64,000 bases of DNA from an uncultured Planctomycetota bacterium (GTDB taxonomy: Bacteria; Planctomycetota; UBA11346). The position numbers and the translations under genes are program-made. How positions within the stretch are numbered: the stretch's first letter is position 1; each line of letters opens with the position of its first letter. The stretch spans positions 2,749-66,748 of the forward strand of contig CAWFSD010000001.1 of NCBI GenBank assembly GCA_963818245.1, read 5' to 3'. Positions 46,941-51,416 of the stretch are shown here, one piece after another. The notes beneath the pieces were generated by a model. That model worked only from the letters and a program-made list of their open reading frames with translations, was not told where the DNA came from and searched no databases.

Positions 46941-47975
46941 GTGAAGCGCATGCGCCTCGCCCTCGACGCCATGGGCGGCGACGATGCCCCCCGCGCGATG
47001 GTGCAGGGGGCCATCGACTACGCTCGCAAGCATTCCGACCACGAGGTCGTGCTGGTCGGCCGCGAGGCCGACATCCGCGCCTGCCTCGCCACTGAACTCA
47101 AGTCGGCGACGGCGCAGCTCCCGAACGTCAGCATCGAGCACGCGGCCGAGATCATCGGCATGGCGGACAAGATCCAGGCGCTGAAGGACAAGCCCGACGA
47201 CAGCATGAACCGCTCGGCCCAGCTGGTGAAGCAGGGCAAGGCGGACGCGATGGTGCTGTGCGGCAACACCGCCTGCAGCGTGGCCGCGGCCCAGCTCCAC
47301 CTGCGCCGCATCCCCGGCGTCAAGCGCGCCGGCCTGCTCACCCCCCTGCCGACCCCCAAGGGCCACACCTGGCTGTGCGACTGCGGCGCCAACGCCGTGG
47401 GCAAGCCCGAGCACCTCGCGCAGTTCGCGGAGATGTCGTCGGCCTTCCTCGAAGTGGCGATGGGCGTCAAGCGCCCGCGCGTCGGCGTGCTGTCGATCGG
47501 CTCCGAGGACGGCAAGGGCGACGAGCTGACCCTGGAGACGCTCGAGCTGCTGCGCCGCACCAACCTCAACTTGATCGGCAACGTCGAAGGGCACGACATC
47601 TACACCGGGGACGTCGACATCGTGGTCTGCGACGGCTTCACCGGCAACGTCGTGCTCAAGGCCAGCGAAGGCGTCTACGAGGCGATCGTGACCATCCTCA
47701 AGGAGGAGATCTACAGCAGCATGCGCAACCAGGTCGGTGCCAAGCTGATGAAGCCCGCCTTCGACGGACTGCGCCGGCGCACCCATTGGAGCCTGGTCGG
47801 CGGCGTGCTGCTCGCCGGCGTCGACGGCGTGACCATCATCGGCCACGGACGCAGCAACCGCGTCGCCGTCTACCACGCCCTGCGCCAGGCCGCGCGCTGC
47901 GTCGAGACCAAGGTCATCGAGACCATGCGCGCCCGCTTCCGCGCCCGCCCCGCCGAGGCCGCCGAAGCCGGTTGA
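46941..47975 (+). CDS. plsX: Phosphate acyltransferase PlsX
   Basis: LALDAMGGDDAP..GKADAMVLCGNT..DCGAN..VGVLSIGSEDGKG..NVEG.DI..G.VDIVVCDGFTGNVVLK..GG..LLG..G..IIGHGRS. Intact. Confidence 0.95.
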   Translation: MKRMRLALDAMGGDDAPRAMVQGAIDYARKHSDHEVVLVGREADIRACLATELKSATAQLPNVSIEHAAEIIGMADKIQALKDKPDDSMNRSAQLVKQGKADAMVLCGNTACSVAAAQLHLRRIPGVKRAGLLTPLPTPKGHTWLCDCGANAVGKPEHLAQFAEMSSAFLEVAMGVKRPRVGVLSIGSEDGKGDELTLETLELLRRTNLNLIGNVEGHDIYTGDVDIVVCDGFTGNVVLKASEGVYEAIVTILKEEIYSSMRNQVGAKLMKPAFDGLRRRTHWSLVGGVLLAGVDGVTIIGHGRSNRVAVYHALRQAARCVETKVIETMRARFRARPAEAAEAG

Positions 47976-48100
47976 GTCCCCGGGCCTTCCAGTGCGCCTG
48001 TGCCGCCACGGCGCCGAGGTGTCCGGAATGCCGAAACCTGGAGGCAAGGGCAGGATTCAGGCTTTTTCCATCACCCGCATCCTGCGATTCCCTTCCCCGC

Positions 48101-48190
48101 TCCCCAAATCTCCCCCAAATCTCCCCGAAATCTGCGGATTCTTCGAGAAACCACTGAAGAATCCGCAGATTTGGGGAGATTTGGAGAGAT
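48101..48190. repeat. Palindromic intergenic element, copy 2 of the 8056-8157 family
   Basis: tccccaaatctcccccaaatctccccgaaatctgcggattct faces agaatccgcagatttggggagatttggagagat. It follows plsX, just as copy 1 follows sufS. Confidence 0.8.
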
Positions 48191-48308
48191 GAGAAAGTTG
48201 GAGAGATTTGCTGATTTCTGCGAGTTCGCCCCTGAGGTATACAGTGCCGCAGCGGCGCACTGACAATCCCCTGGCGGGATGGCGCTGCGCGGATATGATC
48301 CCCTGCGT

Positions 48309-48359
48309 ATGAAGACGTCCTATCGTTTTTGGTTTACCCCCACGGCCATCTCCGACTAG
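48309..48359 (+). promoter_or_regulatory. Candidate aromatic-amino-acid leader peptide ORF (16 codons)
   Basis: atg aag acg tcc tat cgt ttt tgg ttt acc ccc acg gcc atc tcc gac tag translates as MKTSYRFWFTPTAISD. Tyr, Phe, Trp and Phe fall within five consecutive codons. It sits between a TATGAT -10-like hexamer (48294-48299) and a strong terminator, upstream of the DAHP synthase. Confidence 0.45.
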
Positions 48360-48384
48360 GGACGCGCCTTCAACGGCTCGCCAT

Positions 48385-48413
48385 ACCCCTGGTCGGACGA
48401 CCGGGGGTTTTTC
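48385..48413 (+). terminator. Intrinsic terminator (attenuator) between the leader ORF and the DAHP synthase start
   Basis: acccctggtc-ggac-gaccgggggt forms a 10-bp stem with one G-U pair, followed by tttttcgtt. It ends ~29 nt before ATG 48442. Confidence 0.6.
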
Positions 48414-48441
48414 GTTGGCGCCACCTCCCGCCGAGCACCCC

Positions 48442-49506
<1,065 letters not shown>

Positions 49507-49588
49507 GCCTACTCACACGACCGAACGCAGGCCCGCCAGGCCTGCGTTGGTCTTTGCGTTTCACCACATCGCGCCCGGGAATGGAACC

Positions 49589-50056
49589 ATGAGCAGCATC
49601 CCTGTGACCGCCGAAGGCAAGCGCAAGATCCAGGGCGAGCTGGACGAGCTCCAGGCGCGCGTGCCGATCATCTCCAAGGCCATCGCCGACGCGCGCGAGA
49701 AGGGCGACCTGCGCGAGAACGCCGAGTACCACGCGGCGCGCGAGGAGATGTCGATGATCAACGCGCGCATCCAGGACTTGAAAGGCAAGCTGTCGCGCGC
49801 CGTGGTCGTCGACGAGAGCCAGATCGACCACAACCGCGTCGCCTTCGGCGCGAAGGTCAAGCTCGAGGACCTCAAGGACAAGAGCGTCGAGGACTGGGAA
49901 CTCGTCGGCGAGGGCGAGGACGACCCGCTCGAGAACAAGATCCTGACCTCCAGCCCGATGGGCACCGCGCTGATCGGCAAGAAGGTCGGCGAGACCATCA
50001 TCGTCAACGCGCCGGTGGGGCAGCTCAAGTTCAAGGTCAAGGCGATCGCGTACTGA
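49589..50056 (+). CDS. greA: Transcription elongation factor GreA
   Basis: MSSIPVTAEGKRKIQGELDEL...R..I...I..ARE.GDL.ENAEYHAAREE......RI..L...L..A.V..... with the C-terminal block ..ISTSSPMG.AL.GKKVGE... Intact. Confidence 0.9.
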   Translation: MSSIPVTAEGKRKIQGELDELQARVPIISKAIADAREKGDLRENAEYHAAREEMSMINARIQDLKGKLSRAVVVDESQIDHNRVAFGAKVKLEDLKDKSVEDWELVGEGEDDPLENKILTSSPMGTALIGKKVGETIIVNAPVGQLKFKVKAIAY

Positions 50057-50078: not shown

Positions 50079-51183
50079 ATGACCGACGCCGCCACGCCCC
50101 CCGACCTCGACGCCGAACGCCAGCGCATCGACGCCCTCGATCGCCAGCTGGTCGACCTGCTCTCGCAGCGCGCGCGCTGCGCGCAGCGCATCGGCCAGGC
50201 CAAGGTCGCGCAGGGCGCGGCGGTGTTCGTGCCCCACCGCGAGAGCGAGGTCTTCCGCAAGATCGCCGGCCTGAACCCCGGCCCGCTGCCCGAGGGCGCG
50301 CTGCGCGCGATCTGGCGCGAGATCATGTCGGCGAGCTTCGCCCTCGAGCAGCCGCTGACCATCTGCCACTTCGGCCAGGCCGGCGCCTTCACCCACCTCG
50401 CGGCGCGCCTCAAGTTCGGCGCCAGCGTCACCTACGCGCCGGTCGACGGCATCGCCACGGTGTTCGCCGAGGTCGAGCGCGGCCACGCGGACTACGGCGT
50501 GGTGCCGATCGAGAACAGCACCGACGGCTCGATCACCGACACCATCGACGCCTTCCTGGCCACCCACCTGCGCATCGTCAGCGAACTCCACCTGAAGATC
50601 CGCCACCACCTGATGGCGACCTGCCCGCGCGACCGCATCAAGCGCGTCTACTCGCGCCACACGGTATTCGGCCAGTGCCGCAGCTGGCTGGCCGCCAACC
50701 TGCCGGGCGCCGAGCTGGTCGAGCTGGTCTCGACCACCAGGGCCGCCGAGCGCGCCGCGCAGGAGGCCGACGCCGCCGCCATCGGACCGGAGGAGGCCGC
50801 GGTCAATTGCGGCCTGAGGATCCTCGCCTCCGACATCCAGGACAACCCCAACAACATCACGCGCTTCGTGGTCATCGCCAAGCCGGAGCGGGCCGCGAAG
50901 CCCTCGGGCAACGACAAGACCAGCCTGATGTTCGGCGTCCAGGACCGCCCGGGCGCGCTGTACGACTGCCTGCTGCCCGTTCCACCGCTCCGGCATCAAC
51001 CTGTGCCGCATCGAGAGCCGGCCGAGCCGCCGCCGCCCGTGGGAGTACCTGTTCTTCATCGACCTGCTCGGCCACCAGCAGGAGCCGACGATCCGCGAGG
51101 CACTCGCCGAACTCGGACGGCACACCTCGACCTGCGAGGTGCTCGGCAGCTTCCCGCGCGCGGAGCGGGCGCTGAACGAGTAA
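50079..51183 (+). CDS. pheA: Bifunctional chorismate mutase / prephenate dehydratase (P-protein; one apparent frameshift near 50975)
   Basis: CM domain: LDAERQRIDALDRQLVDLLSQRARCAQRIGQAK. PDT domain: ..ICHFGQAGAFTHLAA..YGVVPIENSTDGSI..DNPNNITRFVVI. ACT domain after the shift: ..KTSLMFGVQDRPGALYDCL.PF...GINL..IESRPS....WEY.FFID..GH. Confidence 0.85.
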
Positions 51184-51416
51184 CCGCGCTCCAGTCGTGG
51201 GCGGTGCCTCCGCCGCCCCCAGCAAGCGCGCATGCGGCCGATCCGAGGACGGCTGCACCTGTAATCGGACGGCACACCTCGACCTGCGAGGTGCTCGGCA
51301 GCTTCCCACGCGCGGAGCGGGCGCTGAACGAGTAACCGCGCTCCAGACGTGGGCGGTGCCTCCGCCGCCCCCCGCAAGCGCGCATGCGGCCGATCCGACG
51401 ACGGCTGCCCCTGTAA
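51113..51416 (+). repeat. Tandem direct duplication, 2 x 152 bp, spanning the last 22 codons plus stop of pheA and 82 nt downstream
   Basis: Copy 1 (51113-51264) and copy 2 (51265-51416) align base for base with five substitutions by manual alignment. The single substitution inside the pheA-derived part is synonymous (ccg to cca). Confidence 0.85.

Follow-up and report, generated by a model that had tools for sequence, protein, structure and literature searches.

In a stretch of 64,000 nucleotides (nt) from an uncultured Planctomycetota bacterium (GenBank assembly GCA_963818245.1, contig CAWFSD010000001.1, positions 2,749 to 66,748; hereafter the window), the gene of a class I (AroG/F/H-type) 3-deoxy-D-arabino-heptulosonate 7-phosphate (DAHP) synthase is preceded by an element that we read, with a probability of roughly 85%, as a ribosome-mediated (leader-peptide) transcription attenuator. 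Most genomes of the host's order encode two class I DAHP synthases, here called paralogs A and B, and it is paralog A that this element would control. A preliminary description of the window had already proposed such an attenuator from the DNA letters of this one site. What excludes chance is the conservation of the element among related genomes, not the single locus.

Anatomy of the leader region

The leader open reading frame (ORF) lies between a pair of promoter-like hexamers and a strong hairpin (Table 1). Its codons are ATG AAG ACG TCC TAT CGT TTT TGG TTT ACC CCC ACG GCC ATC TCC GAC TAG, and four of five consecutive codons specify aromatic residues (TAT at 48321, TTT at 48327, TGG at 48330 and TTT at 48333). 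The frame of 16 codons announced at 48309-48359 in the preliminary description, with all three aromatic residue types inside five codons, thus holds in all its coordinates. A 26-codon version starting from an in-frame ATG at 48279 was rejected: it is not conserved, and the nearest relatives have a stop codon between both ATGs.

The only terminator-like site within 47800-48600 is found at 48385-48413, 33 nt before the ATG of the DAHP synthase gene (48442). It consists of the stem ACCCCTGGTC-GGAC-GACCGGGGGT (48385-48408), with 10 base pairs (bp) rich in G+C, and of the run TTTTT (48409-48413). The 10-bp stem and T-run expected between the leader ORF and the gene are therefore present, and the hairpin alone has a predicted energy of -18.9 kcal/mol.

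A second, mutually exclusive helix involves the leader stop codon. Segment 2 (UCCGACUAGGG, 48351-48361) can pair with CCCUGGUCGGA (48387-48397), which overlaps the 5' arm of the terminator, to form an antiterminator of 11 bp including one G-U pair. The earlier claim that the segment around the leader stop codon pairs with this arm stands in its substance and not in its measure, as a helix of 8 bp had been described. The RNAduplex energy of the antiterminator is -23.0 kcal/mol in the window, a value equalled by none of 500 shuffles. Across loci, duplex energies lie between -13.8 and -32 kcal/mol and are better than those of shuffles of the same sequence in nearly all cases. Similarly, the unconstrained minimum free energy (MFE) fold of 48294-48445 contains the antiterminator helix and not the terminator, and the antiterminator conformer of the untranslated RNA has a predicted energy of -42.8 kcal/mol.

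The predicted outcome depends on which parts of the RNA are free at a given stage of synthesis. When the 5' arm and loop of the terminator are out, its 3' arm is not yet made and segment 2 is free, the antiterminator is the MFE structure (-24.7 kcal/mol). When segment 2 is masked at the same stage, there is no competing structure (-4.3 kcal/mol), and the terminator forms once the RNA is at full length (-19.7 kcal/mol). Finally, RNA freed from 48337 onwards, as it would be by a ribosome stalled at Tyr5, folds into a longer antiterminator, in which ACCCCCACGG also pairs with segment 4 (-37.6 kcal/mol). The preliminary description had made its proposal depend on the relative energies of the two structures: the alternative pairing proves substantial, being the MFE fold when segment 2 is free and the 3' arm of the terminator is not yet made.

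The position of segment 2 is suited to masking by a ribosome, given the usual size of a ribosome footprint. Counted from the first base of the stop codon, the segment reaches from about -4..-8 to +6..+14. In the window, its start lies 17 nt past the last aromatic codon and 29 nt past the first one, both counted from the first base of the codon; in most other loci, segment 2 follows the last aromatic codon by 10-17 nt.

Codon usage sets the leaders apart from the rest of the genome. F, Y and W together make up 28.5% of the codons in the 23 distinct leaders of the order, against 6.6% in the long ORFs of the window's genome. TTT accounts for 27 of 49 Phe codons in these leaders and for 0.8% of Phe codons in the long ORFs; similarly, TAT accounts for 22 of 27 Tyr codons in the leaders and for 4.1% in the long ORFs. 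The Tyr and Phe codons of the window's own leader are TAT, TTT and TTT. Such a preference for wobble-read TTT and TAT is what one would expect if slow decoding is the signal, and the rare codons appear to sharpen sensing. Constraints on RNA structure could contribute to the bias as well.

Upstream of the leader, 22 of 24 related loci have, 6-10 nt 5' of the ATG, a hexamer whose second letter is A and whose sixth is T. In 13 of 22 loci, CTGGCG or CTGGCA stands 16-17 nt upstream of this -10-like hexamer (some promoter-like pair being present in 22 of the 24 loci scanned), and two further loci (L015 and L115) show it on inspection by eye. We considered a sigma-54-type reading of CTGGCG and rejected it: on inspection by eye, no TTGC stands at the spacing that this would require, and the distance of 16-17 nt to the -10-like hexamer is maintained. 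No Shine-Dalgarno motif precedes the leader ATG at 48309. As the -10-like hexamer lies 6-10 nt from the ATG and a Shine-Dalgarno motif is absent, translation of the leader would be leaderless or nearly so, the conserved hexamers placing the start of the mRNA probably a few bases before the ATG. A leader of this kind fits the low usage of Shine-Dalgarno motifs in Planctomycetota (PMC5397173).

Table 1. Features of the DAHP synthase locus in the window (positions counted from the first letter of the window)
Feature	Position	Strand	Remarks
plsX	46941-47975	+	PF02504; spacer of 466 nt to DAHP synthase gene
-35-like hexamer CTGGCG, putative promoter element	48271-48276	+	identified by conservation
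-10-like hexamer TATGAT, putative	48294-48299	+	9 nt before leader ATG
Leader ORF, 16 codons + TAG, MKTSYRFWFTPTAISD	48309-48359	+	ATG 48309, TAG 48357-48359; kept in the order
Regulatory codons Tyr5(TAT)-Arg6-Phe7(TTT)-Trp8(TGG)-Phe9(TTT)	48321-48335	+	
Segment 2, antiterminator 5' strand (UCCGACUAGGG)	48351-48361	+	holds leader stop codon; from MFE folds
Small hairpin within antiterminator loop	48363-48380	+	predicted; a comparable one predicted in most relatives
Segment 3, shared strand	48385-48397	+	terminator 5' arm 48385-48394, antiterminator 3' strand 48387-48397
Segment 4	48399-48413	+	terminator 3' arm 48399-48408, T-run 48409-48413
Class I (AroG/F/H-type) DAHP synthase, paralog A, regulated gene	48442-49506	+	PF00793, E = 1.4e-86
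Strong hairpin past DAHP synthase stop codon, then interrupted T-tract TTTGCGTTT	49519-49552	+	-30.9 kcal/mol for 49500-49575, z = -4.0
greA	49589-50056		3' of hairpin 49519-49552
pheA, chorismate mutase-prephenate dehydratase	50079-51335		22 nt past greA

Conservation and covariation in related genomes

The window belongs to a metagenome-assembled genome (MAG) of 4.58 megabases (Mb) in 72 contigs, with 71.8% G+C. The closest public contigs, with protein identities of 95% and 69%, are from Planctomycetota, in agreement with the earlier impression of a non-proteobacterial host. The host's order in GTDB comprises a single family with 48 species genomes from 18 genera, all of them drafts in many contigs. 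Paralog A, the one found in the window, is at least 61% identical across the order.

We could read 24 leaders before paralog A, in most genera and wherever contigs allowed. All of them start with AUG and are followed by a G+C-rich hairpin and a T-run. Apart from the shortened leader of G018, the ORFs have 15-20 codons, most often exactly 16. Examples of the leaders are MKTTRYFWFIPTAISD, MRPQFWFTRYHSPRPD, MRHSFWFIGYQLPRPD, MRRFPQLWYFSHYLSD, MPVARFWYWYRDHIRD, MRRAFWFTGWYFAPSG, MNGAFAFFGWYLDSPG and MLAWFRFTSSYPGSAPD. In 23 of the 24 leaders (the exception being that of G018, locus L012), three to five aromatic residues fall inside six codons, their order being variable, and in 22 the TAG stop codon is embedded in the motif G(A)CTAGGG. 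Thus, the leader ORF and hairpin that the preliminary description suggested looking for upstream of orthologous genes occur there in the same layout. In addition, a covariance model built from three relatives gives one strong match per genome, always at the paralog A gene, and in the 4.58 Mb of the window's genome it finds this site alone.

To compare the two strands of the antiterminator, loci were aligned without gaps, the anchors being the stop codon and the end of the C-run, both of which are independent of the pairing. Two other alignments were discarded: MAFFT on the whole element put the terminator arms out of register, and an alignment fitted by a covariance model was messy for divergent members and included terminator matches on the reverse strand. 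Over ten positions of the antiterminator, 86.8% of alignment cells are paired; shifting the partner strand by 1-3 columns lowers this to 30-61%. Four of the ten pairs show changes on both sides (11 cells), and the covariation score is 0.140, compared with 0.067 +/- 0.012 for shuffles, none of 500 being as high.

Individual genera illustrate how the strands change together. Most genera show a reference form with GGACTAGGG as segment 2, CCCTGGTCC as segment 3 and GGACCGGGG as segment 4. The first case concerns genus g2, in which all three strands are altered together, to GGCTAGGGG, CCCCTGGCC and GGCCGGGGG, respectively. Similarly, G020 has GGACCGGG as segment 2 and CCCGGTCC as segment 3, with a TAA stop codon after the helix. 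In the window and its nearest kin, one position is C (segment 2) with G (segment 3), where the others have G with C; this position is outside the terminator stem of the window. Finally, G016 (genus g7, locus L128) forms segment 2 from GGGCATCG in the 3' end of the leader and segment 3 from CGATGCCC, which overlaps the terminator arm GCCCGAAGG, so that the same architecture is built from unrelated sequence.

Probable attenuation and alternative explanations

Under the attenuation model, transcription would start a few bases before the leader ATG and a ribosome would read Tyr-Arg-Phe-Trp-Phe in codons that are rare in the genome. When charged transfer RNAs (tRNAs) for Tyr, Phe and Trp are abundant, the ribosome would proceed to the TAG inside segment 2 and cover this segment while the polymerase makes segments 3 and 4, so that the terminator would form and transcription would stop before the gene. 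A shortage of any one of these charged tRNAs would make the ribosome stall 16-30 nt upstream of segment 2; free segment 2 would then pair with the emerging segment 3 over its 11 bp, the terminator would not form, and the DAHP synthase gene would be transcribed. From the arrangement of these parts we infer where transcription starts, that the leader is translated, that ribosomes stall on it and how the switch responds to starvation. The logic is the one put forward in the preliminary description (a stalled ribosome allowing the antiterminator, a ribosome at the stop codon allowing the terminator), and it fits the geometry, the predicted energies and the comparative data.

Several observations count against this model or limit its reach. 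To begin with, the full-length conformers are close to each other at equilibrium: in RNA freed from 48346, the terminator is favoured at -28.8 kcal/mol, against -26.8 kcal/mol for the antiterminator. Because of this closeness, the switch must be kinetic, the order of synthesis deciding as in classical attenuators. Secondly, an anti-antiterminator (1:2) helix is unsupported in the window copy, as 38% of shuffles are as good; the corresponding duplex is significant in some relatives only, such as L008, L014, L116 and L123. A 1:2 helix is typical of enterobacterial attenuators and is not required for the class. As there is no convincing 1:2 helix, the untranslated RNA of the window copy would be expected to read through, the ribosome at the stop codon being the sole anti-antiterminator. 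Thirdly, a generic sigma-70 scan returned no promoter, the two hexamers being recognised by their conservation. The related genomes are kin, and counts of conservation and covariation therefore overstate independence. Three genomes, G061 (L124), G058 (L121) and G011 (L129/L016), have neither leader nor terminator before paralog A, and the leader of G018 (L012) is degenerate, with 12 codons and a single Phe; the element is thus dispensable. The G018 locus retains a terminator and an alternative helix, CUAGGGGUUC:GAACCCCUGG. Finally, the host genome is an uncultured MAG, 63% complete, and a scan of this incomplete genome for a leader ORF with a terminator gave 66 raw candidates and no other convincing case. 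The three most attenuator-like of these were ordinary gene ends with terminators on inspection. The only chorismate-binding (TrpE-like) match in the genome lies inside a long fused frame.

Three other explanations of the same site have to be weighed. Exclusive terminator and antiterminator folds are also typical of riboswitches and of switches controlled by a tRNA or a protein, as in T-box or TRAP systems, and such a switch would not need the leader ORF to be translated, a step that our model infers. A search of 47500-49000 with cmscan against Rfam (E <= 10) found no leader RNA family (Phe_leader and Trp_leader included), and at the site itself the sole match on the + strand is at noise level, to the Pseudomonas small RNA P15, its 20.2 bits falling below the gathering score of 70. 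The element measures about 100 nt, an architecture of specifier loop, T-box or (G/U)AG repeats being absent, and the ATG, the open frame and the aromatic codons are all that is conserved upstream of segment 2, so that we regard a switch independent of the leader ORF as very unlikely.

The peptide, instead of the codons, might also carry the signal, either by arresting the ribosome in response to a ligand, as TnaC does, or through a function of its own. Aromatic residues are common to the leaders, and their C-termini are often alike (…PRPD, …VPD, …SPG), as a functional peptide would predict. However, the aromatic residues differ freely in order and spacing among the leaders and are conserved in density alone, and the C-terminus is prescribed by GAC-TAG-GG, a motif that covaries as RNA. 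Favouring rare wobble codons suits the sensing of decoding speed, not of peptide identity, and the general logic (a biosynthetic enzyme with termination as the default) suits the sensing of a shortage. We thus consider a peptide-based mechanism slightly less probable still than a switch that ignores translation.

Least probable of all is the simplest explanation, already raised in the preliminary description, that the hairpin is a constitutive terminator or insulator of the upstream plsX unit beside a functionless mini-ORF and pairing: in the window and most relatives, plsX does lie upstream and in the same orientation, and the hairpin is by itself a good intrinsic terminator, but the whole element is intact in L011 (genus g3) beside a divergent upstream gene (for a flavin adenine dinucleotide (FAD)-binding protein), which rules this role out, and is retained in L014, where about 390 nt of upstream contig show no plsX match; moreover, it always adjoins the DAHP synthase gene, follows the conserved pair of promoter-like hexamers, shows compensatory changes in the antiterminator, and keeps its ORF, aromatic cluster and stop position while the surrounding nucleotides diverge.

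Genomic context, origin and relevance of the probable attenuator

The putative attenuator is confined to paralog A. Paralog B, about 57-60% identical to A in the order, never shows a leader in its upstream regions; in the window's genome it is about 60% identical to A and located on another contig, again without leader. A conserved motif, CTTGGC(A/T), is present about 40-60 nt before the ATG of paralog B in L030, L029, L028, L018 and L020, and mirrored heptamer arrays, (GACCCTA)n / (TAGGGTC)n, occur farther upstream of this paralog in G000 and G003. On the downstream side in the window, the hairpin beyond the stop codon of the synthase gene probably ends the regulated unit, separating aroG from greA-pheA. 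No leader was found before pheA, in the 22 nt that follow greA.

The spacer between plsX and aroG also contains a long palindrome of mirrored short-word repeats (CCCCAAATCT… / …AGATTTGGGG) at 47990-48262, with its core at 48093-48217. The palindrome has two pairs of arms, one formed by 48093-48118 and 48170-48195 and the other by 48124-48144 and 48156-48176. An inverted repeat of 17 nt (47990-48006 and 48246-48262) flanks it. Rfam matches to microRNAs at 48100-48200 were rejected as spurious, as they merely reflect this repeat-element palindrome.

Comparable leaders are known from other bacteria. In Corynebacterium glutamicum, a Phe-Tyr-Phe leader before a DAHP synthase gene, aroR-aroF, has been established experimentally (Neshat et al. 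2014, as presented in a passage of PMC11802643). According to the same passage, aroF transcription increases when ribosomes stall under Phe limitation, Tyr supply reportedly having no effect (PMC11802643). The two systems share a short aromatic leader ORF directly 5' of a DAHP synthase gene, the same logic and the same target, a likeness that is a functional analogy only, as common descent of the two leaders would not be expected. They differ in that C. glutamicum belongs to the Actinomycetota, while the leader described here also has Trp and carries its stop codon within one strand of the antiterminator. A combined Tyr/Phe/Trp leader on a DAHP synthase had been thought uncommon in the preliminary description, an opinion that is hard to maintain given aroR-aroF, as related in that passage, and the analogues in several lineages described below.

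With pheL-pheA and trpL-trpEDCBA, the window's element has in common the cognate codons, the exclusive 2:3 and 3:4 helices and a decision taken by ribosome position. It differs from both in several respects: three amino acids, as predicted, would be sensed instead of one; a Shine-Dalgarno motif is missing, the mRNA being probably leaderless; and the target is an enzyme of the common pathway, which E. coli controls with repressors (according to a passage of PMC11802643). It differs from trpL, in addition, in having no supported 1:2 helix, so that untranslated RNA should read through instead of terminating.

We found further candidates in other lineages with simple filters for an aromatic mini-ORF and a terminator before a class I DAHP synthase gene. 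In Polyangia (Myxococcota; L047, L051 and L055), candidate leaders include MRSPRFHFWFGYW…, MLSRRHFWFGYW… and MRFDRFSFWYGYW…; in Bradyrhizobium (L087, L094 and L107), they include MITVATSYFWYFSYDSS…; and in Burkholderiales/Oxalobacteraceae (L070, L109 and L110), MSAKFYFYFFAY… and MSFARFYFHFYFSY…, each of these groups having terminators. Five genomes of a second Planctomycetota family, f57, also carry candidate leaders (MNVRTGFYFGYSYFGWRQ…, MNVRNASGYYFYSFSYPWR…), with a different terminator (loci L134, L135, L138, L144 and L146 in G358, G273, G316, G111 and G258, respectively). The genomes of this family have 6-7.5 Mb, some of them in 6-8 contigs, and their leaders, such as MNVRTGFYFGYSYFGWRQPGRRGAA and MNVRNASGYYFYSFSYPWRDPGLRELT, are followed by a terminator of the type GCCCTGAG…CTCAGGGC-T6 and by a DAHP synthase 51-55% identical to that of the window. 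Leaders in the other lineages are longer than the window's, with 22-30 codons, and no aromatic leader before DAHP synthase in these lineages is described in the literature searched.

The Polyangia candidates are of particular relevance to the origin of the element. Their leader core, FW(F/Y)GYW, is close to the FWFTGY of the window's genus, and the terminator arm AACCCCTGGTC is also alike, whereas their antiterminator strand lies inside the ORF and not on the stop codon. Among the 401 Planctomycetota genomes sampled, paralog A is found in the window's family only; it is up to 70% identical to cyanobacterial enzymes and 61-62% identical to those of Polyangia. In an unrooted FastTree phylogeny of 102 enzymes, paralog A, Polyangia and a cyanobacterial group form one clade (support 97), apart from paralog B. 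These relationships suggest that the paralog A gene was acquired horizontally. Since paralog A clusters with Polyangia, whose leaders have a similar core and terminator arm, a joint transfer of gene and attenuator is plausible. On the same quick tree, the presence of a leader requires at least five changes, and the closest cyanobacterial homologs (L036-L054) show no aromatic leader within 330-350 nt under the filters used. Two of these, L036 (a Leptolyngbyaceae MAG) and L037 (Alkalinema), have a common motif, ATCTCGCGTTAA, about 60-160 nt before the gene, located in L037 inside a long hairpin that ends in a T-run.

Leader-peptide attenuation in Planctomycetota is the subject of no report in the literature searched; in PMC4833913, the phylum figures only in statistics on the distance between leader and structural gene. 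What is new here is thus apparently the attenuator in this phylum, the mechanism itself being textbook, and classical leader-peptide attenuation would be extended to Planctomycetota. The element provides a compact case of a leader without Shine-Dalgarno motif and probably leaderless, with individual traits of its own: three amino acids (as predicted), a stop codon that forms part of the antiterminator, a 1:2 helix that is unsupported in the window copy, and rare codons. As a mini-ORF with a switch, it escapes standard annotation pipelines, and it is a candidate for an RNA family spanning several phyla.

The main value of the element would lie in what it says about the organization of gene expression in the phylum. 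That transcription and translation are spatially separated has been proposed for Gemmata (a 2014 study, as cited in a passage of PMC5394234). A switch of this kind works only if the ribosome closely follows the polymerase, so that its conservation argues for coupled transcription and translation in these planctomycetes, and the element may serve as evidence of, and as a potential reporter for, coupling in a phylum for which that passage mentions separation. Tentatively, and with slightly less than even chances in our view, the DAHP synthase and its attenuator may represent a cassette that has moved between phyla, and its conservation in two families may represent the first genetic evidence of transcription-translation coupling in planctomycetes.

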